Below, one piece after another: positions 3,149-54,238 of a DNA stretch of 64,000 nt (the stretch's first letter is position 1; each line of letters starts with the position of its first letter). The notes under the pieces are model-generated. The model saw only the letters and a list, made by a program, of their open reading frames with translations, was not told the DNA's origin and ran no database searches. Where the stretch lies: assembly GCA_044867445.1 (NCBI GenBank), contig JBIOUY010000370.1, positions 9,037 to 73,036 on the forward strand, in the 5' to 3' direction. The position numbers and the translations under genes were made by a program. The stretch comes from Gemmatimonadales bacterium. Its GTDB lineage: Bacteria > Gemmatimonadota > Gemmatimonadetes > Gemmatimonadales > GWC2-71-9.

Positions 3149-3242
3149 CGATGAGAGTCCGGGACGATAGAGATGGATGAGTTTGGAAGAAAGTTCGCCG
3201 CCGGATCGGCGATGTCAACCACCAGGCCAGCGTTGGCTAGCG

Positions 3243-4751
3243 ATGCAAGGAGGCTTGGTTCGGGAAGTCCCGCCACTTAGCTTGGCGGAGCCGCGAACCC
3301 AGAGGATCCCCGTGCCGGTGCTTGAGTCGCTGCATCTGTCGTCGTCCCTCGCTGCTGCGCTCGAGCGGGTCGGTTGGACGGCGGATGATCCGATGGTGAA
3401 GGAGGGCCTGCCCACTGCCGCAAGGGGGCACAATTTGGTGGTGGTAACGCCCCCGGCTCCCCCATACGCTGCGCCGGCACTTGCGGGACTCCTGACCCGG
3501 GTGGGGCCGAATGGGCTGGGCCTGGTACTCTGCCCGGCAGCCCAGCTCGATGAGTGGGGTGCGCTGGCCAATGGGTTGGGCGGGGAGGTCGGTCTGCGTA
3601 TCCATGTGGCGCACGGCGAGGCACGGGCAATCCGCCGCCTCCGTGACGGCGCGGTCGACCTCCTGATTGCGACTCCGGATCTGATTCAGGACCTCCAACG
3701 CCGCTCGGCAGTGCAACTGGATCGGGTGATAGGCATCCTACTCGCTTGGCCGGAACAGTGGGAGGAGGAAGCCAGCCTCACACCGCTCATGCAGGACCTC
3801 TCCAAGGATACGCAGCGTCTGGTGCTGACGGCCTCACCGTCCCGAGCCGCCGATCTGGTTGAGCGCTACGCGCGTCGGGCGCTTACGGTGGGAGCCACCC
3901 AACAGGAAGCGGGCACGGTAGGCCCGGTGCGAACAGTCAGCGTGGCATGGGCGAATCGGTCGAGGGCCGTCACCGAGGTCCTGGAGCTGTTGGATCCGGC
4001 GTCGCTGGTCATCTGGACCGCCGATCGCAGCGCGCACGCCGCAATCCGCCGGGTCATCCCGCAGACCGAGCCCGAGATCCAGCTCACCTCCGGCGACGCA
4101 CCCAAGGCGGAATTGATCCTGGCCTTCGACCTGCCCAGCGCTCGACGTCTTCGTCAACTGCGCGAGGCCGGAGACGTGGTCCTGCTGGTGCCTCCGGGCG
4201 CCGAAAGCTATGTCGCAGCCATCGCGGCACCGGTCCGGCCGCTTCGACTATCCGGCCTGGTTGACCGGGTTGCGGCGGAAGCCGGCGTACGGCGCTCGGC
4301 GATCGTGCGAACCCTGGAGACCGCTCCGCCGGAGCGTGCGCTACTCACGCTGGCGCCGCTGTTCGAGCGCTACGATCCGTCGGCGGTTGCCGCTGCCCTC
4401 TATGAGTTATGGACGGCCTCGGGTCGCGAGCTCCCGGCAGCGACGCCGGACGTCCCGGCGGTGGCCAAGATCTACGTGGGCATCGGAAAGCGGGATGGGG
4501 TGACCGTCAACGACCTCGTTGCGGTGCTCACCAAGGAGGTTCGAGTCGAGCGGGGAAAGATCGGCCGAGTGGAGCTGCGCGATGGGTACGCGCTGATCGA
4601 AATCCCGGCGCAGGACGCCGAGGGTGTGGCCAGCGCGCTCAACGGAAGAACCATTCGCCGGAAGCGGGTGACGGCGAGGGTGGATCGAGGGGGGCCGAAG
4701 GGGACGAGGGTCGCGGGTCGCGGGTCGCGCGCCGATCGCAAGCTTACCTGA
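3243..4751 (+). CDS. Degenerate DEAD-box-like protein with C-terminal DbpA RNA-binding domain
   Basis: C-terminal IYVGIGKRDGVTVNDLVAVL..IGRVELRDGYALIE matches DbpA; N-terminal LVLCP and LIATP remnants but no GKT or DEAD; start uncertain (3177/3243/3312). Confidence 0.75.
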   Translation: MQGGLVREVPPLSLAEPRTQRIPVPVLESLHLSSSLAAALERVGWTADDPMVKEGLPTAARGHNLVVVTPPAPPYAAPALAGLLTRVGPNGLGLVLCPAAQLDEWGALANGLGGEVGLRIHVAHGEARAIRRLRDGAVDLLIATPDLIQDLQRRSAVQLDRVIGILLAWPEQWEEEASLTPLMQDLSKDTQRLVLTASPSRAADLVERYARRALTVGATQQEAGTVGPVRTVSVAWANRSRAVTEVLELLDPASLVIWTADRSAHAAIRRVIPQTEPEIQLTSGDAPKAELILAFDLPSARRLRQLREAGDVVLLVPPGAESYVAAIAAPVRPLRLSGLVDRVAAEAGVRRSAIVRTLETAPPERALLTLAPLFERYDPSAVAAALYELWTASGRELPAATPDVPAVAKIYVGIGKRDGVTVNDLVAVLTKEVRVERGKIGRVELRDGYALIEIPAQDAEGVASALNGRTIRRKRVTARVDRGGPKGTRVAGRGSRADRKLT

Positions 4752-4777
4752 CTCGCGACCCGAGACTCGCGACCCTC
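4701..4777. repeat. Inverted heptamer arrays (GGGTCGC)n / (GCGACCC)n between convergent genes
   Basis: gggacga gggtcgc x3 ... tgactc gcgaccc gagactc gcgaccc. Confidence 0.8.
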
Positions 4778-5196: not shown

Positions 5197-5802
5197 ATGA
5201 ACTATGGGACGCACCCCGGCTGGATCGAGGTGATCAGCGGTGTCATGTTCAGCGGCAAGAGCGAGGAGCTCATCCGTCGAGTGCGCCGCGGGATCATTGC
5301 CCGCCGGAAGGTGCAAGTTTTCAAATCTCATCTCGACAGCCGATACGCCGGGCTCTACAGCGTGACCAGTCACGACGGCACTGAACTGGATGCTTCCCCG
5401 GTTGACTCAGCGGCCGAGATCTACCGGCTGGTGCGGCCGGATACTCAGATCGTGGCGATCGACGAGGCCCAGTTCCTAGACCCGGACGTGGTGACCGTCT
5501 CGACCCTTCTGGCCGGCCGGGGGATGCGGGTCATCCTGGCGGGTACGGATACCGACTTTCGGGGCGAGCCTTTCGGCTCGATGGGCGAGCTCATGGCGGT
5601 CGCCGAAATGGTGGATAAGCTGCAGGCCATCTGCGTGGTCTGCGGCGATCCTGCGTGTCGCAACCAGCGCCTATTAAACGGCAAACCAGCCCGATACGAC
5701 TCGCCGACCATCATGGTGGGAGGGCGGGAGAGCTACGAGGCCCGATGCCGGCACTGTCATAAGGTGCCGAGGAAGGATGAGGATCAGACGGCGTTGTTGT
5801 GA
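5197..5802 (+). CDS. tdk: Thymidine kinase
   Basis: [21 protein letters not shown] and YEARCRHCH zinc motifs. Confidence 0.97.
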
Positions 5803-5892
5803 GGTCGCGGGTCGCGGGTCGCGGGTCGCGGGTCGCGGGTCGCGGGTCGCGGGTCGCGGGTCGCGGGTCGCGGGTCGCGGGTCGCGGGTCGC
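5803..5892. repeat. Tandem heptamer array (GGGTCGC), about 13 copies
   Basis: Perfect tandem run directly after the tdk stop. Confidence 0.98.
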
Positions 5893-5976
5893 GCAGAAGG
5901 TAGTACCAGCGATCGTTTCTAGGGTTGGCGGACCTCAAAGATCCGACAGATTTTGGGGCACCTCGCAATTGTGGGC

Positions 5977-6357
5977 ATGCTCTTGGGTGAGTTCAGGAAA
6001 CTCGAGGTCTGGCAACGAGCGCACGCTCTTACACTCGCCGTATACCGCGCAACCGCTCGGTTCCCGCGTGAAGAGTTGTATTCCTTGACCTCACAACTAC
6101 GCCGGTCGGCCGTTTCCATCCCGGCCAATCTTGTGGAAGGCACAGGGCGCCAGACAGATGCGGAGCTTCGCCGTTTCATTCGCATCAGTCTGGGCTCCGC
6201 CGCAGAGCTGGAATATCACCTCCTCCTCGCACACGATCTCAGCCTACTTGATACTGGTGCCTTCGGAGATTTGAGCGCCCAACTTCACTCGATTCGAGGA
6301 ATGTTGGTATCTCTGATGCGAGCACTGAACGGCAAGCGGAACGCCTGCGACCCGTGA
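5977..6357 (+). CDS. Four helix bundle protein (23S rRNA IVP-like family)
   Basis: FRKLEVWQRAH..FPREELYSLTSQLRRSAVSIPANLVEG..FIRISLGSAAELEYHL. Confidence 0.93.
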   Translation: MLLGEFRKLEVWQRAHALTLAVYRATARFPREELYSLTSQLRRSAVSIPANLVEGTGRQTDAELRRFIRISLGSAAELEYHLLLAHDLSLLDTGAFGDLSAQLHSIRGMLVSLMRALNGKRNACDP

Positions 6358-6388
6358 CCCGCGACCCGTGACCCGCGACCCGTGACTC
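6347..6388. repeat. Heptamer array (GYGACCC) x6, inverted relative to 5803-5892
   Basis: gcgaccc gtgaccc gcgaccc gtgaccc gcgaccc gtgactc; contains the upstream stop and the coaE GTG. Confidence 0.95.
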
Positions 6389-6984
6389 TCTCCATCGCCC
6401 TGACCGGCAACATCGCCTCCGGTAAGTCCACCGTCGCCGAGCTGCTCCGGCGCTGGGGAGCAACGGTCATCGTAGCCGATGAACTCGTCCGGCAAGCACA
6501 GGCGCCTGGCAGCTCCATTTTGCGAGACATCGCCGCCCGATTTGGCCGCGAGGTGATCCTGCCCGATGGCTCGCTGGACCGGGCCGGCCTCCGGCGACGG
6601 GTGATGGGAGATCGCGCCGCGCTGGCCCAGCTCAACCGTATCGTCCACCCCACGGTGCAGCGCCGTCGGGCGGAGCTGGTGGAGGAAGCCCGTGCCAGGG
6701 GCGATCGCATCGTGATCAACGACATCCCCCTGCTGTTCGAGGCCGCGGACCCGACCGAGTTCGACGCCGTGGTGCTGGTCGACGCACCCGAACCAGTGCG
6801 GCGGGCCCGCCTCATCGCCGAGCGGGGTCTCTCACCCGATGAGGCCGATCGCATGCTTGCCTCTCAAGACCCCTCCGGACCCAAGCGAGCTCGCAGCGAT
6901 TACGTGATCGACAACGATGGTGATCGCGCCGCGCTCGAGCGGGCCACGGCGGAGGTCTGGCGGGCACTACTCGCCCGCGCTTGA
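6382..6984 (+). CDS. coaE: Dephospho-CoA kinase
   Basis: IALTGNIASGKST, LDRAGL, IVHP, DIPLLFE, DYVIDN. Confidence 0.95.
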   Translation: MTLSIALTGNIASGKSTVAELLRRWGATVIVADELVRQAQAPGSSILRDIAARFGREVILPDGSLDRAGLRRRVMGDRAALAQLNRIVHPTVQRRRAELVEEARARGDRIVINDIPLLFEAADPTEFDAVVLVDAPEPVRRARLIAERGLSPDEADRMLASQDPSGPKRARSDYVIDNDGDRAALERATAEVWRALLARA

Positions 6985-7442: not shown

Positions 7443-10346
7443 ATGACTTCCGTGCTTCCGGCCGGCCCGGCCTCCCCGCCCGCAGACGTGCTCCAACCCG
7501 GTCACTTTGCCTATCGCCACATCGGTCCACGCCGGGAAGATGTGGCCGACATGTTGGAGTTGTTGGGCTATCACTCCCTCGACGCGTTCATCGACGCCGT
7601 CGTCCCCCAGGAAATCCGGTTGCGCCGGCCCCTCGCGCTTCCCCCCGGTCGGAGCGAGCGCGAGGTCCTTCAGGCTCTGCGGGGCCTGGCCGGCATGAAC
7701 CGGGTATACCGGTCCTACATCGGCATGGGGTACGCGGGCTGCTTCACGCCCCAGGTGATCCAGCGGAATGTGTTGGAGAATCCCGGCTGGTACACCGCCT
7801 ATACCCCCTATCAGGCGGAGATATCCCAGGGGCGGCTGGAGGCGCTGCTCAACTTCCAGACGGTGGTGTCCGACCTCACCGGCCTGGAAGTGGCCAACGC
7901 GTCCCTTCTAGATGAGGCGACCGCCGCCGCGGAGGCGATGAGCCTTACGCTCGCCGTGAGCAGCGTGAAACGCGACCCGGTGTATCTGGTGGATGAGTAC
8001 TGTCACCCGCAGACCATCGCCGTCGTGCGGACCCGTGCCGAGGCGCGCGGGATCAAGATCGTGGTGGCGGAGCCAGAGACCTTCACCTTTGAGCCTGACG
8101 TCATCGGGGCTCTGGTCCAGTATCCATCGACCGATGGGGCAGTTCGCGACTTCCGCACCCTCTGCGAGCGGGCCCATGCAGCGGGAGCACTGGTCACCGC
8201 TGCGACTGACCTTCTGGGCCTCACCATGCTGGTGCCGCCGGGCGAGTGGGGCGCAGACATCGCGGTCGGGAACAGCCAGCGTTTCGGCGTCCCGATGGGT
8301 TATGGCGGCCCTCACGCCGCCTTCTTTGCCACTCGCGACAGCTACAAGCGATTCATGCCCGGCAGGATCATCGGCGTTTCCCGGGATCGCGACGGCCGCT
8401 CCGCGCTCCGGATGGCGCTGCAGACGAGGGAACAGCACATCCGCCGCGACAAGGCGACGAGCAACGTGTGCACCTCGCAGGTGCTGCTGGCGGTCATGGC
8501 CAGCATGTATGCTGTCTATCATGGGCCGGGGGGGCTCCGGCGGATCGCGGAACGAGTGCACAACCGGACGGTCGTCCTGGCCAACGCCCTCCGGCGACTG
8601 CGCTATCGCATCGTTCACGATTGGTATTTCGATACCATCTGCGTGGAAGTTCCGGAATGGGCCCTGCCGCGGCTGTTGGATGCGGCACGCGCCCGGATGA
8701 TCAATCTGCGGCCGCTCCCGCCGACGCGGCTCTGTGTGGCGCTGGACGAGACGGTGACCCTGGGCGATCTCGCCGATCTGATCGCGGTGTTCTCGCTCAA
8801 CGAGGCGCTGCCGTTCATGCTGGAAGACATCGGCGTCAAGTCTGAACGGGCTATTCCTCCCGCCCTCGAGCGAACCTCGAACTACCTCGCCCATCCGGTC
8901 TTCCATCTGCACCACTCGGAAACCGAGATGCTGCGGTACATCAAGCGGCTGGAGGCACGCGATCTTTCGCTCACGTCCGCGATGATCCCGCTCGGCTCCT
9001 GCACCATGAAGCTCAACGCCACCACCGAGATGATGCCGGTGAGCTGGCGAGAGTTCAATCGGCTGCATCCGTTCGCGCCAAGGGATCAAGCGGCGGGCTA
9101 CGAGCTGCTGTTCCGCCAACTGGAGTACCAGTTGGCCGAGATCACCGGCTTCTCCGCGGTGTCTCTACAGCCCAATGCGGGCTCACAGGGCGAGTTCGCT
9201 GGGCTGCTGGTGATCCGGGCGTACCACCGTTCGCGGGGCGAGGCCCATCGCCGAACCTGTCTCATTCCCCAGTCCGCCCACGGTACCAACCCGGCAAGCG
9301 CCGTGATGGCGGGGATGCAGGTGGTGCCGGTCAAGAGCGATGCCCGCGGCAACATCGATCTGGATGATCTGCGCGCCAAAGCCTCGACCCACCGGGATAC
9401 CCTCGCGGCGCTGATGGTCACCTACCCATCGACTCACGGAGTGTTCGAAGGCTCGATCCGGGAAATCTGCCGCATCGTCCATGAGCACGGCGGCCAGGTC
9501 TACATGGACGGCGCCAACATGAATGCCCAGGTCGGGCTCTGCCGTCCAGGCGACATCGGGGCCGACGTCTGCCACCTGAATCTCCATAAGACGTTCTGCA
9601 TCCCACATGGAGGTGGCGGTCCCGGCATGGGCCCGATCGGCGTGGGCAAGCACCTGGCGGATTTTCTCCCGGGCCATCCCGTCATCGATCTCAGCCATCC
9701 CAACGCCTGCGGAACCATCTCGGCGGCAGCCTGGGGCAGCGCCGCGATCCTTCCAATCTCCTGGGCGTACATCGCGCTGATGGGATACGATGGCCTCGCC
9801 GAGGCGAGCAAGATTGCGATCCTCAACGCCAACTACGTAGCCAAGCGGCTGAGCGGTCATTACAACGTGCTCTACGCCGGGCCTCACGGCCTGGTGGCTC
9901 ACGAATGCATCATCGACACCCGTCCGTTCAAAGCATCGGCGGGAGTAGACGTCGAGGACATTGCCAAGCGGATCATCGACTACGGCTTTCATCCGCCCAC
10001 GGTCTCCTTTCCAGTCGCCGGCACCTTGATGGTCGAACCCACCGAGAGCGAGTCTCAGGAAGAGCTCGACCGGTTTTGCGACGCGCTGATTGCCATCCGG
10101 GAGGAGATTCGGGAGATCGAGGAAGGGCGGGCGGACCGGGAGCATAACCTGCTCACCAATTCGCCTCATACGCTGGAGCAGGTCATCGCCGACAGCTGGG
10201 ATCGACCTTATCCTCGCGAGCGCGCCGCCTACCCTTCTCGAGCGGTTCGGGAGCACAAAGTGTGGCCCACCGTGGGCCGGGTCGACAGCGCGTACGGTGA
10301 TCGGAACCTGGTATGCGTGTGTCCCCCGATGGAGGAGTATTCCTGA
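7443..10346 (+). CDS. gcvP: Glycine dehydrogenase (P protein, single chain)
   Basis: [41 protein letters not shown]. Confidence 0.98.
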
Positions 10347-10561
10347 GGACGCAAAGGACGCAAAGGACGCAGAGGACGCAGAGGACGGAAATGACGGAAA
10401 AGGCAGTCAACCTGGAGGCCGCCCCGCGGCCGGAAGAGCTTGCCCCGAGCGCAGCGAGGGGGGTCGGAGCACGGCGTGAGTGTCGGCCCCTTTCCCGCTT
10501 CGCGCTCCAGGATGACAGCAGGTCCTCTCCGTCTTCTCCGTCCTCTGCGTCCTCTCCGTCC
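10345..10561. repeat. Composite element: 9-mer array (RAGGACGCA) + palindrome 10406-10516 + inverted 9-mer array
   Basis: gaggacgca aaggacgca.. x6; GTCAACCTGGAG...CTCCAGGATGAC; tccgtcctc-type units at 10523-10561. Confidence 0.85.
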
Positions 10562-11323
10562 TGGTATCTCTGGATTGATCTCGACGGTCGGCCTGGCTTC
10601 GAAAACATGGCCATCGATCAGGCGCTGCTCGGGCGCGCGGGCCGCCACGGTGAGCGATGGCTGCGACTGTACCGCTGGCAACCTCACTGCCTCTCCTTCG
10701 GCCGGCATGAGCCCGCCGCCCGGCGATACGACCCCGCTCGGATCGCGCAACATGGCCTGGATGCCGTTCGCCGGCCTACCGGCGGTAGGGCGGTGTGGCA
10801 TGGTCGTGAGGTGACCTACGCGATTGCGGCGCCGGCGAGCGCCCTGGGCCAGCTCCGGCACGCCTACCTCGAAATCCATCGGATGCTCCGGCACGCATTG
10901 CGCGCACTCGGCGCCCCCGCCGAAATGGCGCCACCTCAACCACCGGCGAGATTGGATGCGGGCGCCTGCTTCGCGCAGCCGGTAGGTGGTGAAATCATGA
11001 TTGGCGGTAAGAAGATCGTGGGGAGCGCGCAGCTCCGGGAAGGCGAAGCCCTGCTCCAGCACGGCTCCATCCTGCTGCGCGACGATCAGGCGGTGGTTCA
11101 ATCCGTCGCTCGCGGAGCGACGACAGGCGAACCCATGTTACGCGCACCTGAATGGGTGGAGCTGGAGGACAGTGACCGTCAGATAGCAGAGGCCGTGGGC
11201 GACGCTGCCGCTGCCCGCTGGGGCGGAGTCTGGGAGCGGCAGCCACCGATCGAGTCGGTGCTGGAGCTAGCCACCACCCATGTGCCTCGGTTTCGATCGG
11301 ATGCCTGGACCTGGAGGCTGTAG
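10391..11323 (+). CDS. Lipoate-protein ligase / LipM-like octanoyltransferase
   Basis: NMAIDQALL, LRLYRW, VRRPTGGRAVWH, KIVGSAQ, LQHGSIL; next to gcvH/gcvP. Confidence 0.9.
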   Translation: MTEKAVNLEAAPRPEELAPSAARGVGARRECRPLSRFALQDDSRSSPSSPSSASSPSWYLWIDLDGRPGFENMAIDQALLGRAGRHGERWLRLYRWQPHCLSFGRHEPAARRYDPARIAQHGLDAVRRPTGGRAVWHGREVTYAIAAPASALGQLRHAYLEIHRMLRHALRALGAPAEMAPPQPPARLDAGACFAQPVGGEIMIGGKKIVGSAQLREGEALLQHGSILLRDDQAVVQSVARGATTGEPMLRAPEWVELEDSDRQIAEAVGDAAAARWGGVWERQPPIESVLELATTHVPRFRSDAWTWRL

Positions 11324-26825: not shown

Positions 26826-27650
26826 ATGCGGGTCTACATCTCCGTTGACATGGAAGGCATTGCCGGCGTCGTTCATGAGGATCAGACTGACCCGACTGAT
26901 CCGCTTCACGCGGGGGAGTATAACAGGTTTCGCCGTTTGATGACGGCGGAAGCCAACGCGGCCATTGAAGGCGCCCTCAGTGCCGGCGCGACGACGGTGC
27001 TGGTTAATGACAGTCACTGGTTCATGCGCAACCTGCTGGCCGAGGAGCTGCATCCGGCCGCCGAGCTACTGAGCGGCGGGCCGAAACTCCGTTCCATGAT
27101 GGAAGGCGTCGAGCAGGGTTTCCAATCGGCGATGCTGATCGGCTATCACGCGCGAGCAGGCGCCGCGGCCGGCATCATTGATCACACCTATACCAGCCGA
27201 GTTTACGAGGCCCGACTCAATGGCCGGCCGGTGGGCGAGCTGGCCATCAACGCCGCCCTCGCGGGGACCTACGGTGTGCCGATCGCGCTGGTGAGTGGCG
27301 ACCAAACACTGGCTCAGGAGGCGAGGGATTTCCTGGGCGAGTCGGTCGAGACGGTCACCGTGAAGCACGCCGTGGGGCGGTTCGCGGCGCGCAGCGTGGC
27401 CCCCGTCGAAGCCTGTCGTCTCATTCGGGAGGGTGCGGCGGCTGCGCTCCAGCGCCGCCACCGGCCGTTCACGTTCCCTGCGCCCATTCGGCTGGAGGTG
27501 GACTTCGCCCTCACCCAGATGGCCGACATGGCAGAGCTGGTTCCGGGCTCGGTGCGGACCGCCGGGCGAACGGTCGAGTATGTGCACCAGGACTATCAAG
27601 AAGTGTTCCGGGCTTGGCGGGCATTGTACAATCTGGCCGGAGTAGAATAA
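26826..27650 (+). CDS. M55 family D-aminopeptidase (DppA type)
   Basis: YISVDMEG, NDSH, IGYHA, HTY, VSGD. Confidence 0.93.
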   Translation: MRVYISVDMEGIAGVVHEDQTDPTDPLHAGEYNRFRRLMTAEANAAIEGALSAGATTVLVNDSHWFMRNLLAEELHPAAELLSGGPKLRSMMEGVEQGFQSAMLIGYHARAGAAAGIIDHTYTSRVYEARLNGRPVGELAINAALAGTYGVPIALVSGDQTLAQEARDFLGESVETVTVKHAVGRFAARSVAPVEACRLIREGAAAALQRRHRPFTFPAPIRLEVDFALTQMADMAELVPGSVRTAGRTVEYVHQDYQEVFRAWRALYNLAGVE

Positions 27651-27862
27651 AGTGAGAAGTGAGAGGTGAGAAGTGAGAAGGTGAAGCGTGAAAGGTGAAA
27701 GGTGAAAGGGAGGGTTCGGGGCTCCGTTCATCTTCACCTTTTACGTTTCACACTTCACGTTTCACGCTTCCACGTCTCACCTCTCACCTCTCACCTCTCA
27801 CCTTCTTACTTCTCACTTCTCACCTTCTTACTTCTTACTTCTTACTTCTCACTTCTCACTTC
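27651..27862. repeat. Nested inverted heptamer arrays between convergent genes
   Basis: agtgaga/aggtgaa units followed by tttcacg/tctcacc/tctcact units. Confidence 0.93.
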
Positions 27863-28576
27863 TTCCGGCACTCGCACCCACCGCGTGATCTCCGTCTGCC
27901 AACCCTGATCCTTACGCCGGTCGAACGAGGCCTTGAGATAGGGGCTCGCCTTGTGCTGCTCCAGTGCCTCCGCATTGCGCCAGACCTCGAGCCGCATGAA
28001 CTCACCAGGATGATCGGCGGACTGATAAAGATCATAGCCAAGGTTCCCCGGCTCGGCTCGTGTGGGCTGCGTCAAGCTCAATAGCTCATTCTTGACTTGC
28101 TGGTCCGCTCCGGGCTTGCCCCGGATGAAGGTGACTGCCGTGAGCACCTCACTCAGCTCACCCTGACTCCTGCCACCCTGCACCGCTTGCCGTGCAGCAG
28201 CCGTTTTCAACTCCACCAGGATCCCGTGGGCGTCGGTATCGCCGATGTTGGTGGGCGAGTGCATCACGGCATCGCTGTAGAGGACTTCGCCCGCCTTCGC
28301 CTCGCGAATCGCCGTGCGCCCACCCGGCAGCTTGAACCTGATCTTGAACGGCTCCAGGACGTAGAGCACATGGGCAGGATGGGAATGGAACGCTTCGGTG
28401 TCGCCCTTCCGCAGGCGGAAGTCGAGGACCCGAACCCGATCATTGTCGATCAGGACCTTGTAGTTGCCCGGATAGCGGGGCACAGGGTCCTCACCTGCCG
28501 GTAGCTGAGCCACGGCGACACCAGACAATGCGAGGAGCAGAGCCGCGGCGGCAGCCAGCGAAGAAATGGCCTGCAT
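27842..28576 (-). CDS. Secreted cupin + antibiotic biosynthesis monooxygenase (ABM) fusion
   Basis: Signal peptide; DNDRVRV..FHSHP..HSPTN cupin; TRAEPGNLGYDLYQ..EVW..ALEQH ABM. Confidence 0.8.
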   Translation of the reverse strand: MQAISSLAAAAALLLALSGVAVAQLPAGEDPVPRYPGNYKVLIDNDRVRVLDFRLRKGDTEAFHSHPAHVLYVLEPFKIRFKLPGGRTAIREAKAGEVLYSDAVMHSPTNIGDTDAHGILVELKTAAARQAVQGGRSQGELSEVLTAVTFIRGKPGADQQVKNELLSLTQPTRAEPGNLGYDLYQSADHPGEFMRLEVWRNAEALEQHKASPYLKASFDRRKDQGWQTEITRWVRVPEEVRSEK

Positions 28577-39780: not shown

Positions 39781-39866
39781 TCACTCCCTACTCCTACTCC
39801 TCACTTCTTACCGCTTACGCTCACTGCTCACTTTACACTTCTCACTCACTTCTCACTTCTCACCGC
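39781..39866. repeat. Degenerate heptamer array (TCACTTC/TCACTGC), one arm only
   Basis: tcactcc ctactcc..tcacttc ttaccgc..tcactgc..tcacttc tcacttc tcaccgc. Confidence 0.8.
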
Positions 39867-42725: not shown

Positions 42726-43787
42726 ATGAGACGGACCTGGTGCGGCACTCTATCGTTGTCGGTTGTGACACTGGTGGCCGTGCTCACGGTCGAGGCGCGT
42801 GCCCAGCTCCAACCCCGCCCCACGCACGAGCCCATCCTCACTCGCCTTGACCCGCGTTTCGATCGCCTTGTGCCGCCCGGTACGATCCTCGAGAAGATCG
42901 TGGACCATCACGGCTGGGCCGAAGGACCGGTGTGGGTTCGCGACGGCGGCTACCTGCTCTTCTCAGACGTGGTCCAGAACGCGATTTACCGCTGGAAAGA
43001 AGGCGAGGGGGAAACGGTCTTCTTGCGCCCCAGCGGATATACCGGTTCGGCGCCATTCAGCGGCCCCGAGCCCGGCTCCAATGGCCTTGCCCTCGATCCG
43101 ATGGGCCGGATGGTCTTCTGTCGGCACGGAGACCGCAGCATCTCGCGCCGTGAGGTCGACGGCCGAGTCACGACTTTGGTCGACCACTTCGAAGGCAAGC
43201 GGATCAACAGCCCCAACGACCTGGTCTTCAAGTCGAACGGTGACCTCTATTTCACCGATCCGCCCTTCGGCCTGCCTCGCACCTTCGATGATCCGGGTAA
43301 GGAGCTGCCCTTTCAGGGAGTCTACCGGTTGACCCGCGACGGCCAACTGACCTTGCTCACGAAGGAGTTGAGCGCGCCGAATGGGATCGCCTTCTCTCCC
43401 GACGAGCGCACCCTCTACGTCTCCAACGCCGATCGTCAGCGGCTGGTGTGGATGGCGTTCGCCGTGAACCCTGACGGATTGCTGGGGAGGGGCCGAGTCC
43501 TCTATGACGGAACCAAATCGCTCGCCGGTCGCAGAGGCACCGCCGACGGCATGAAAGTCGATGCCCAGGGAAACGTCTTTGGAGCAGGACCCGGCGGTGT
43601 CTATGTCTTCGCGCCCGACGGTACCATGCTCGGCTGGTTCGATTTCGGCGGCAACGTGGGGAACGTTGCTTGGGGGGAAGACGGCTCAACTCTCTTCATT
43701 GCGGCGAATGCCGCGGTGTATCGCGTCAGCCTCGCCACCAGAGGCGCGGGATGGCCGCCCACGCAGGCAGTGAGCAGTGAGAAGTAA
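42726..43787 (+). CDS. SMP-30/gluconolactonase family protein
   Basis: EGPVW, GSNGL, NSPND, YFTDP, DGMKVD. Confidence 0.92.
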   Translation: MRRTWCGTLSLSVVTLVAVLTVEARAQLQPRPTHEPILTRLDPRFDRLVPPGTILEKIVDHHGWAEGPVWVRDGGYLLFSDVVQNAIYRWKEGEGETVFLRPSGYTGSAPFSGPEPGSNGLALDPMGRMVFCRHGDRSISRREVDGRVTTLVDHFEGKRINSPNDLVFKSNGDLYFTDPPFGLPRTFDDPGKELPFQGVYRLTRDGQLTLLTKELSAPNGIAFSPDERTLYVSNADRQRLVWMAFAVNPDGLLGRGRVLYDGTKSLAGRRGTADGMKVDAQGNVFGAGPGGVYVFAPDGTMLGWFDFGGNVGNVAWGEDGSTLFIAANAAVYRVSLATRGAGWPPTQAVSSEK

Positions 43788-43902
43788 GAAGTGACACCTC
43801 CTCACTTCTTACTTCTCACTTCTTACTTCTCACTTCTTACTTCTCACTCCTGCTCACTGCTCACTGCTCACTGCTCACTTCTTACTGCTCACTTTTCACT
43901 GC
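43767..43902. repeat. Nested inverted heptamer arrays between convergent genes
   Basis: gcagtga x2 gaagtaa gaagtga | tcacttc/ttacttc x6, then tcactgc units. Confidence 0.93.
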
Positions 43903-46130: not shown

Positions 46131-46221
46131 AGGTGAGAGGTGACAGGTGAGAGGTGACAGGTGAGAGGTGACAGGTGAGAGGTGACAGGTGAGAGGTGAC
46201 AGGTGAGAGGTAAGAGGTAAT
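46131..46221. repeat. Heptamer array x13, alternating AGGTGAG/AGGTGAC
   Basis: Direct reading; last units aggtaag aggtaat. Confidence 0.97.
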
Positions 46222-53368: not shown

Positions 53369-53383
53369 ACGACCACCGCCTGA

Positions 53384-53499
53384 TCAGTGAGAAGTAAGAA
53401 GTGAGAAGTGAGCAGTTAACAGTGAGCGGTGAGCAGTGAGCCGTAGGAGGCGGTAGGGGCTCTCTTACTTCTCACTGCTCACTTCTTACTGCTCACCGC
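53384..53499. repeat. Inverted heptamer arrays
   Basis: gaagtga/gcagtga units, then ttacttc tcactgc tcacttc ttactgc tcaccgc. Confidence 0.9.
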
Positions 53500-53500
53500 T

Positions 53501-54238
53501 CTACTTGCTGCTCATCGCCTCACCCGCCGGCACGATGCTCACCCGCAGCACATCGGCCGTCCGGGGATAGCTGAAGTGATCGCTGACGTGAGCCACCGCG
53601 TTATGCTCGGCCACGCCGGCATCCGGCGTCTTCTGGCGGGGGCCCTGATTGGGACCCAAGCCGGGCTCTTCGTTCACCTCAGTGCCCGCGTCCCACAGCG
53701 AAAGCTGCAGCGTCATGTCTCCCGACTTGGGCTTGCCGGCGGCGTCGAACAGCGCGATCGGCCGATCATTGGAGTAGAACAGGTCGTTGGACTGGCCGAA
53801 CATCCACGCCACCGATAGGGTCTGCCCCGGTGAGGCTGAAACCTCGAAGCTGTAGCCTTGGCCCGGAGTGAGTGGCCCCTGAGCCGTTGCACCGATCGGG
53901 CTCGCATCCGCTCCCACCGAGACAATTCCCTTGGCCCCGGTCAGCGACTTGGCGAGAGGCTCAGGATTACCGGTCTCGGCGAGGGCCTCGAGCCCCTTCC
54001 CCGCGTCCGGCTGGCCGCCGGTGAAGATGGGATTTGCGGCGCCGCTGTGAATGACCCAGAGAACTGGCGCCGATACGAAGGGCGCGGTCTTGGCGTTGGA
54101 CAGCTGCAACACCTCACTCTTCGAGATGTTGTCGACCTTGACGGTGAACTTGGTCGGCTCCGCCGAGCTCTGCGCCGCGGCTCCGTGGGCCGCGGCCAGG
54201 ACGGCCACCGACAGCGAGATTGCGCGGACGAGCGACAT
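53501..54238 (-). CDS. Secreted spondin-N domain protein
   Basis: GLEALAETG, MFGQSNDLF, WDAGTEVNEEPG. Confidence 0.88.
   Translation of the reverse strand: MSLVRAISLSVAVLAAAHGAAAQSSAEPTKFTVKVDNISKSEVLQLSNAKTAPFVSAPVLWVIHSGAANPIFTGGQPDAGKGLEALAETGNPEPLAKSLTGAKGIVSVGADASPIGATAQGPLTPGQGYSFEVSASPGQTLSVAWMFGQSNDLFYSNDRPIALFDAAGKPKSGDMTLQLSLWDAGTEVNEEPGLGPNQGPRQKTPDAGVAEHNAVAHVSDHFSYPRTADVLRVSIVPAGEAMSSK

Follow-up and report, generated by a model that had tools for sequence, protein, structure and literature searches.

The S23p or four-helix-bundle proteins form a very large family that was first met in intervening sequences (IVSs) of rRNA, which are located at the tips of helix 25 or helix 45. 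A gene of this family (PF05635) lies at positions 5803-6388 of a 64,000-nucleotide stretch of the genome of a soil bacterium of the Gemmatimonadales (GenBank assembly GCA_044867445.1, contig JBIOUY010000370.1, positions 9,037 to 73,036 of the forward strand; the window hereafter). It stands exactly between the housekeeping genes tdk and coaE, with an array of a 7-nt repeat on either side, the two arrays being inverted relative to each other. We consider it probable that this element is an IVS-type cassette, consisting of a leader and the four-helix gene between inverted 7-nt arms, which was inserted between tdk and coaE and is read with the host transcript. We found no description of such an IVS-type cassette in an operon junction, nor of the package of gene and repeats as a class, yet this package is spread over many phyla.

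The nearest described thing to the window cassette is the IVS of 23S rRNA that carries an open reading frame (ORF). In the available part of Warrier et al. (2016, PMC4990558), the helix-45 IVS of Coxiella burnetii has a 28-bp terminal stem that is cut by RNase III, bears an S23p ORF, and contains two or three tandem GACAGAT heptamers, the number of which varies among strains. The presence of PF05635 in rRNA insertions of bacteria of the Candidate Phyla Radiation (CPR) is reported in the accessible text of bioRxiv 10.1101/2024.02.27.582315. Avd, a protein of diversity-generating retroelements (DGRs), is described in sections of bioRxiv 10.1101/2023.10.23.563531 as a pentameric basic barrel that binds DGR RNA stem-loops and is required by the DGR reverse transcriptase (RT). 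According to a portion of PMC10053308, PF05635 resembles Avd and is the commonest Pfam family near DGR RTs.

Two further systems share the layout or the repeats of the window element. The Ssn GIY-YIG nucleases are flanked by their own dispersed hairpin repeats, NTS/SRM, as given in passages of Chenal et al. (2025, PMC11893778). Heptamer simple sequence repeats (SSRs) have been reported in Xanthomonas (GGGAATC), where they occur as inverted pairs, and in Nostoc, and were treated as G-quadruplex-forming (Rehm et al. 2015, PMC4692102); the part of this article available to us ties the heptamer pairs to no gene and uses the term 'four helix' 0 times. A literature search of full texts (supplements and subscription journals lay outside its coverage) returned no account of PF05635 genes bracketed by inverted heptamer arrays outside rRNA.

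The TGA stop codon of tdk occupies positions 5800-5802, and the left array of the element begins at the very next base (Table 1). The cargo gene has an alternative in-frame TTG at 5953 and ends with the stop codon at 6355-6357. This stop codon and the GTG start of coaE are both held by the right array, in frame with each other and with eight codons between them, the GTG falling in the last unit of the array. Tandem Repeats Finder (TRF) describes the right arm as 2.9 copies of a period of 14 (GCGACCCGTGACCC, 100%), equal to 5.4 heptamers at 87%, so that the copy numbers of the arms are unequal (13 on the left vs 5.4 on the right). The 14-mer GGGTCGCGGGTCGC, allowing at most one mismatch, occurs 19 times in the window, compared with a mean of 0.22 and a largest count of 2 in 100 shuffles. 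A preliminary description of this DNA, made from its letters, had counted about 13 GGGTCGC units from the tdk stop onward and six reverse-complement units containing the four-helix stop and the coaE GTG; both counts agree with the TRF arrays.

Table 1. Features of the tdk-coaE element, its nearest gene-less counterpart in the window and the repeat units of related loci (positions are those of the window).
Feature	Position	Strand	Basis
tdk (thymidine kinase; upstream host gene)	5197-5802	+	ORF list; Pfam PF00265, E 9.5e-51
Left (5') arm, 13.0 perfect GGGTCGC copies (TRF consensus GGTCGCG)	5803-5893	+	TRF, period 7, 100% matches, score 182
Leader, non-repetitive, 83 nt, from left arm to cargo ATG	5894-5976	+	sequence
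Four-helix-bundle gene (cargo), 126 aa from ATG 5977	5977-6357	+	PF05635, E 1.8e-35
Right (3') arm, alternating GCGACCC / GTGACCC, reverse complement of left unit	6347-6386	+	TRF
coaE (dephospho-CoA kinase; downstream host gene), GTG start 6382-6384	6382-6984	+	ORF list; PF01121, E 7.8e-44
Gene-less hairpin of the window unit: GGGTCGC x3.1 (4708-4729), 23-nt loop, about three GCGACCC-type units (4753-4777)	4708-4777		TRF, sequence
Units of the six PF05635 loci of the genome: CGGCTAA; GGGTCGC; 9-mer GGAGAGGAC; CAGGAGT; AGGTGAG/C; longer GGCGGAC-containing unit			by eye

The predicted RNA fold of positions 5790-6400 has a minimum free energy (MFE) of -310.7 kcal/mol (z -5.87), which none of 20 shuffles equals. 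In this fold, 49 pairs (5 of them G-U) are formed between 5795-5847 and 6343-6394. The right arm, 6347-6386, partners 5806-5847, and the isolated arm duplex is predicted at -99.3 kcal/mol. The paired region takes in the cargo stop, the coaE start, and two bases of the tdk stop. The preliminary description had proposed an arm stem of about 40 bp, and the MFE fold predicts about 45-49 bp. The element thus has the terminal inverted repeats and the predicted ORF-enclosing stem of an IVS, in a location between protein-coding tdk and coaE, that is, outside any 23S rRNA helix tip.

Evidence for an inserted unit comes from the same junction in relatives. We collected tdk loci from 29 relatives, 23 from the same genus and six from another family of the order. 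The tdk-coaE junction is repeat-free in 16 of them, with a spacing of -4 to 46 nt (one of the 16, L007, is from the unpublished genome G003), and the tightest empty junctions, at -4 to 4 nt, are scar-free. Other relatives carry the cassette at different stages of preservation. An intact four-helix gene, 63% identical to that of the window, lies between AGGTCGA-type arrays in L024 (genome G005), and a frameshifted gene lies between GAGCTGT-type arrays in L018 (G004). In L020 (G015), what is left between GGGTCTA-type arms is a C-terminal remnant, turned to the opposite strand (E 8.6e-7); L023 has nothing but arm remnants.

In a tree of tdk and coaE with 28 rows, from which L011 and L020 were excluded for their partial coaE match, the three cassette-bearing rows are spread over three clades, each of which also contains empty sites, and the outgroup-family loci are cleanly empty in four of six cases. 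The cassette is dispensable and has been gained and lost within a genus. The empty junctions bear out the proposal of a discrete repeat-bounded inserted unit, and the earlier reading of the locus as a repeat-bounded, dispensable IVS-family cassette is right here.

Other sequences are found at the junction as well. Unrelated, gene-less 8-mer hairpins of the CACAGAGG/GGCACGGG type, also found in another family of the order, are present in L013, L025, and L029. L008 and L019 have single arms, L014 and L016 a GTCATCCTGAGCGAAGCG-type palindrome, and L011 301 nt of other sequence; L017 is rearranged. Across the relatives, the tdk-coaE junction is a recurrent landing or growth site for hairpin-forming DNA.

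The same arrangement of gene and arms is found beyond this locus. The genome (4.51 Mb, 373 contigs, 65% G+C, 95.4% complete) has PF05635 genes at six loci, and inspection by eye places every one of them between inverted tandem arrays whose unit is particular to the locus (Table 1). Six sequencing runs of soil metagenomes contain half or more of the words sampled from the tdk-coaE locus, and none of the runs listed for it is of RNA. Under a strict TRF rule, four of the six pass (binomial P ~9e-14, the chance of at least four of six random 330-bp segments landing in such loops). A TRF census of the genome gave 1339 short arrays, 845 of period 7, with 324 inverted pairs vs 63 direct ones. The loops are shorter than 200 bp in 275 inverted pairs and measure 428-465 bp in six, four of which contain a PF05635 gene. 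The other two of these loops, of 428 and 465 bp (C184:1194-1692 and C320:17511-18103), contain no ORF of 60 codons matching the four-helix profile; the loop on C320 holds nested arrays of two further units.

To the loci of this genome we added 80 relatives from public genomes, 77 of them with enough flank for arm analysis. These foreign loci come from at least ten phyla, including Acidobacteriota, Gemmatimonadota, Nitrospira, Verrucomicrobiota, Chloroflexota, Planctomycetota, Desulfobacterota, Chlamydiota, and one CPR genome. The arm score measures how well the upstream flank matches the downstream flank once the latter is reverse-complemented; controls were 136 pseudo-genes placed at shifted positions in the same loci. 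The inverted-arm score is at least 33 in 58 of the 77 loci and at least 40 in 42, whereas none of the 136 controls reaches 33 (maximum 31). The enrichment of four-helix genes between inverted 7-mer arrays, which the preliminary description had put forward for testing, is therefore observed both here (6/6 by eye) and in foreign genomes.

Among the 43 strong foreign loci, the best arm period is 7 in all but one. Their layout is asymmetric. In 28 of the 43 the stop of the cargo falls within the 3' arm, in 32 it is at most 10 nt away from it, and the median distance from the 5' arm to the ORF is 54 nt. No common motif was found among the leaders of 44 cassettes, 23 of which have a motif resembling a Shine-Dalgarno sequence.

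The cassettes also tend to share the direction of their hosts. Where the two neighbours point in the same direction, the cargo agrees with them in 46 loci and opposes them in 8; all 79 loci analysed for orientation divide into ++ 46, +- 16, -- 8, -+ 4, and 5 with one flank uncalled, counts that rest on heuristic gene calls (G+C by codon position) and carry that caveat for the co-transcription they suggest. In this genome, the four intact copies follow an upstream gene or rRNA, and both antisense copies are broken, that on C27 being without its C-terminus and that on C300 frameshifted.

One of the six loci establishes the connection with rRNA directly. On contig C13, a four-helix gene with heptamer arms is located at position 1218/1219 of the large-subunit (LSU) rRNA model, the tip of helix 45, on the rRNA strand. 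This insertion qualifies as a genuine helix-45 IVS and is built like the window cassette, and the family link to 23S rRNA IVSs named for the window gene in the preliminary description is found within its own genome. The same 23S rRNA gene (L033, C13:1-2978) contains a gene-less CAGGAGT/CAGGAAT hairpin at LSU 583/584, the helix-25 site.

The cargo protein is a clear member of the family, with 118.6 bits to TIGR02436 (cut-off 24) and 121.8 bits to PF05635 (cut-off 33.8), and its best sequence match in the PDB is 2gsc_A (E 5.8e-17). The AlphaFold model has four long helices at a predicted local distance difference test score (pLDDT) of 92. Foldseek template-modelling (TM) scores are 0.87 to 2gsc, 0.75-0.78 to 2rld, and 0.74 both to Avd in 4dwl and to Avd in the DGR ribonucleoprotein 8ub7. 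The structural kinship to Avd named in the preliminary description is thus supported by the TM score of the predicted model. The protein is basic, with an isoelectric point (pI) of 9.5.

Avd is a pentamer, and five chains are present in 2GSC and 2RLD. Modelling of four copies of the cargo protein gave a head-to-tail interface of 0.78 vs 0.00 for the best control, a value that may reflect memory of the solved pentamers; the mark used for this interface is reached by 20 of 30 solved one-chain pairs and by 1 of 23 single chains. The model runs have at least 75% of contacts in common, with partner pLDDT of at least 83. We predict from these models an Avd fold and a putative ring oligomer. Purifying selection is observed in other lineages, where three diverged syntenic pairs give ratios of nonsynonymous to synonymous substitution rates (dN/dS) of 0.07, 0.10, and 0.11. 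Of the other syntenic pairs, one has a ratio of 0.36 with few changes and another no synonymous change; the window/L024 comparison is saturated.

Reverse transcriptases were looked for in the genome, where 19 matches were obtained, mostly on short contigs (C360, C232, C71, C115, C348, C251, C30, C107, C156, C185, C366, C14, C279, C297, and C7). Group II intron maturase domains are present in four of the five tested, and the group II intron load of the genome is unusually high. None of the RT matches shares a contig with any of the six PF05635 loci.

We propose the following working for the cassette. It was inserted into the short gap left between tdk and coaE in relatives. No promoter-like (sigma-70-like) site was found in its 83-nt leader, and without a visible promoter of its own the cassette would ride the tdk-coaE transcript. 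In this RNA, the arms would pair into the stem of about 45-49 bp, loop out the ORF, and bring the tdk stop beside the coaE start. The helix-45 cassette of the 23S rRNA would behave alike, its arms pairing and its ORF being looped out. Because the cargo ORF ends in the 3' arm, which also holds the coaE start, ribosomes ending the cargo ORF may open the stem and expose this start, coupling the translation of the two genes. Our best guess, by analogy with the binding of Avd to DGR RNA stem-loops, is that the protein binds the stem-loop of its own arms. Copies decay by frameshift, by internal deletion, and by flipping between the inverted arms.

Several observations weigh against this proposal. 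If pairing were selected in the RNA, mismatches in the arms might be expected to favor one strand. In the 43 strong loci, G·U-compatible mismatches number 47 in the sense and 46 in the antisense direction, next to 117 transversions; these counts carry no signal, and we claim no selection at the RNA level. Arm substitutions are also mostly uncompensated in the syntenic pairs L085/L088 and L089/L091. Since a strand-specific G·U bias is absent and arm changes are uncompensated, the complementarity of the arms may be kept at the DNA level.

The history of the insertion can also be read in more than one way. In a tree of 73 proteins, the nearest neighbor of the window protein is the L024 copy, at the same locus in G005 (63% identity, no branch support), and GGTC-core units are common to L001, L020, L023, and L024. 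Because the nearest relative sits at the same locus and these units are shared, one old insertion followed by many losses may explain the pattern as well as several gains would. No target duplication, conserved termini, or recombinase was found at occupied vs empty sites or among the leaders. Nor does the element show the hallmarks of a transposon or a miniature inverted-repeat transposable element: the units differ in all six copies, the leaders have no motif in common, no direct duplication is seen at the occupied site, and the sole ORF encodes the four-helix protein. Six near-identical cassette pairs compared for unit boundaries were all syntenic orthologues or duplicates.

A further difficulty concerns RNase III, which is nearly universal in bacteria and, to our knowledge, the sole enzyme so far known to process such stems. 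Profile searches with PF14622 and PF00636 revealed no RNase III domain in this genome (95.4% complete), and the best E in a tblastn search with three RNase III proteins of the phylum was 0.15. PF14622 is found in none of 25 relatives and none of 46 genomes from the class, several of which are closed, vs 14 of 15 in other classes of the phylum. The pattern looks like a class-wide loss of RNase III. Classical RNase III excision of the window cassette appears doubtful, since searches of the class revealed no gene for the enzyme, and excision from RNA, which the preliminary description had raised, is conjectural. We also considered that the loss of RNase III lets hairpins spread and rejected it, as samples of 200 kb from each of two genomes without the enzyme, which represent other families of the class, contain no inverted pair.

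The preliminary description had further pointed to a gene-less version of the heptamer pair 1 kb from the cassette, which is present (Table 1), and had suggested that the many arrays without a gene descend from the cassette as its emptied forms. The decay series at tdk-coaE (L018, L020, and L023) agrees with this suggestion for that junction. For the gene-less arrays of the genome it is mostly wrong. Six-frame translations of 136 loops, and of as many random controls, were searched with a profile of 72 family members. Only the four known cassettes were matched (best control E 0.26), and no recognizable four-helix remnant was detected in the 132 other loops of 60-1000 bp. As many as 79 of 235 loops (25-1000 bp) belong to a single family with the inner palindrome TCATCCCGAGCG...CGCTCGGGATGA.

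This palindrome leads to a different gene. Small GIY-YIG genes (PF01541) are located at C56:8133-8870 (L036), C80:12416-12830, and C8:1128-1461, and their flanking inverted repeat, TCAYCC(C/T)GAGCG...CGCTC(G/A)GGRTGA, is the palindrome of the gene-less loops. The unit on C56 is nested in AGCTAAC/GTTAGCT heptamer arrays, and palindromes with arrays on both sides number 65 vs 0.25 expected. Since the GIY-YIG gene and its palindrome lie inside heptamer arrays, these arrays wrap at least two kinds of cargo.

Every cassette unit belongs to an abundant unit family of the genome, with 33 gene-less arrays for GGGTCGC, 53 for CGGCTAA, 38 for AGGTGAC, 54 for AGGTGAG, and 23 for GGAGAGGAC. The census shows intergenic tandem heptamers in convergent pairs, the pattern of the Xanthomonas repeats; the STRR repeats of cyanobacteria are of a comparable kind. 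The density of inverted pairs is 7.2 per 100 kb vs 0.5 per 100 kb in G004 and G019, of the same genus, and at least about 14-fold higher than in any sampled relative. One pair per 200 kb was found in each of G004, G019, and G077, none in 200-220 kb each of G031, G053, G071, G086, G089, and G046, and none in 60 kb each of G042, G049, and G058. This points to a recent, species-level expansion. An explanation by the number of four-helix genes was rejected: G077, G031, and G053, with 10, 8, and 6 PF05635 matches, have 1, 0, and 0 pairs in 200-220 kb.

The arrays have a constant handedness. Within unit families, the orientation is uniform in 289 of 293 inverted pairs, which common descent would lead one to expect. 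When families are compared, a purine-rich 5' arm is still the rule, with 270 of 292 inverted pairs against 22 in which it is pyrimidine-rich. In foreign cassettes, RGC exceeds GCY in the 5' arm in 27 loci, with the reverse in 4 and equality in 12. All three reading frames are closed in 184 of the 235 heptamer 5' arms of this genome vs 64 of 235 3' arms; this asymmetry is not seen in foreign cassettes (16 vs 21 of 43), and the GGGTCGC unit of the window has no stop.

The gene-less hairpin of the window unit at 4708-4777 lies between the converging genes of a DbpA-like helicase and HU, with a predicted RNA fold of -55.6 kcal/mol. In window 3177-4777, the helicase ORF runs through the left arm of the hairpin (C-terminus ...TRVAGRGSRADRKLT) and stops in the loop, so that the hairpin supplies the end of the protein. 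More intergenic arrays are found at 10346-10562, 27650-27863, 39796-39863, 43769-43900, 46131-46218, and 53381-53501; their units are the 9-mers AGGACGCAA/GTCCTCTCC, GTGAAAG/CTTCTCA, AGTGAGA/CTCACTT, AGGTGAG, and TGAGCAG/ACTGCTC, several of them as inverted pairs in TRF.

The abundance and handedness of the arrays bring forward an alternative in which the arms act as DNA. The element would be palindromic, its hairpin or cruciform serving as a substrate for insertion, copying, or correction, and the RNA stem would be a by-product; in variants of this explanation, the cassette was inserted into the tip of an existing array hairpin, or the arms are kept alike by template switching. We regard it as rather unlikely. 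It would account for the lack of strand bias in the wobble-compatible mismatches, for the negative searches for RNase III, and for the fixed handedness of the arms. It also agrees with the finding that each cassette unit is the unit of tens of gene-less arrays, with the sole sampled gene-less pair of G004, which carries the unit type of the cassette of that genome, and with the enclosure of a different cargo, the GIY-YIG gene on C56 and its palindrome, by the same arrays. However, a purely DNA role predicts neither the 46 vs 8 co-orientation of the cargo nor the decay of the antisense copies. The position of the cargo stop in the 3' arm of most strong loci points to translation and RNA, and the Xanthomonas heptamer pairs are, in the available part of PMC4692102, not tied to any mobile gene. 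A second alternative denies the mobility itself: the gene would be an old resident, its flanking SSRs made and homogenized by replication slippage, and its patchy distribution the result of repeated loss. The same-locus relative in G005 and the shared GGTC-core units are what it expects, as are the different copy numbers of the arms and the fast change in length known for heptamer SSRs (accessible parts of PMC4692102 and PMC4990558). We nevertheless find it improbable, in view of cassette loci in three clades that also have empty sites, the cleanly empty outgroup loci, and the scar-free junctions of a few bases. Unrelated inserts (8-mer hairpins and the GTCATCC palindrome) occupy the same junction in relatives, and the same design recurs in 23S rRNA and at unrelated loci in many phyla.

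The overlap of the right arm with the coaE start raises the question of regulation. In a host regulatory device, a slippage-prone stem would hide this start and tune or phase-vary coaE (and tdk), the small gene being incidental. In line with such a device, the predicted stem pairs the coaE GTG as well as some bases of the tdk stop, and the arms differ in repeat number. There is a precedent in Haemophilus, where the control that intergenic SSRs exert on phase variation depends on RNase III (available text of PMC12721329). We consider it very unlikely, as most relatives are without the cassette, the same cassette is found at unrelated junctions and in rRNA, and the cargo protein is under purifying selection. 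The kinship of that protein with Avd leaves one more alternative, to which we give almost no credence: an orphan Avd accessory gene of a DGR or of a defence system. The TM scores to Avd in 4dwl and 8ub7 and the frequency of PF05635 near DGR RTs (portion of PMC10053308) speak for it, as does the match of the protein to NF033474, the Avd equivalog, weak though it is (E 7.6e-5). That match scores 23 bits vs a cut-off of 80, a PADLOC search of the gene gave no match, and the RTs of the genome, mostly of group II intron type where tested, are on contigs other than those of the PF05635 genes. An IVS-type cassette read with the tdk-coaE transcript is the explanation that we prefer.

A wider reading may be considered. 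PF05635 cassettes with heptamer arms would constitute a pan-bacterial self-propagating class, of which rRNA IVSs are a subset; the ring protein would bind the stem-loop of its own arms and recruit a cellular polymerase or RT to copy or extend the element, much as the DGR RT depends on Avd. If one short template served to extend the 3' ends at either side of a break, the arms would end up with one and the same unit, the unit would vary by copy, and the purine-rich strand would always run 5' to 3' toward the center. The genome has at least 15 group II intron-type RT matches, cited here next to the recruitment of a polymerase or RT. We judge this reading decidedly improbable; if it were true, it would account for the excess of heptamer repeats in bacterial genomes.

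The cassettes join two old puzzles, the function of the S23p/four-helix family and the over-represented intergenic heptamers of many bacteria. The locus described here is an unusually clean case, uniting empty junctions in near relatives, successive stages of decay at one junction, and a genuine rRNA IVS in the same genome, and a host lineage apparently without RNase III adds to its interest. Should the cassettes prove to be a mobile class, the rRNA IVSs would occupy a single niche of an element of far wider distribution, and operon junctions would be common landing sites, with effects on the translation of downstream genes.

Compared with known systems, as they are described in the source passages cited above, the window cassette is closest to the 23S rRNA IVS. 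Both have the PF05635/S23p cargo, terminal inverted repeats for a long stem, predicted in the window cassette, that loops out the ORF, and tandem heptamers of variable number, and both are co-oriented with a host transcript in which they are, in the window cassette probably, embedded. Unlike the rRNA IVS, the window cassette sits between two protein genes of an operon, its arms, of 13 and 5.4 units, are long arrays of homogeneous make-up and overlap a stop and a start codon, and the excising enzyme RNase III was not found in the class of its host. With Avd, the cargo protein shares the four-helix-bundle fold and the basic character, and its models suggest that it may also share a ring-type self-association. 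Avd itself binds RNA stem-loops next to a template flanked by complementary segments, whereas no RT, template repeat, or variable repeat was found near the window gene, which is under the equivalog cut-off.

The intergenic, convergent heptamer pairs of Xanthomonas resemble the window pair in being stem-loop-capable, near the end of the upstream gene, and fast-changing, while the window pair encloses a specific gene family. The cargo protein of the window has another fold than the Ssn nucleases and is without a known catalytic motif, and the cassette arms are tandem arrays whose unit changes from copy to copy, not one conserved motif. As in Ssn, a repeat in inverted orientation flanks a small gene and is scattered gene-less elsewhere in the genome, and a GIY-YIG gene of that very layout, alike in Pfam domain and arrangement, is found on C56 within heptamer arrays.

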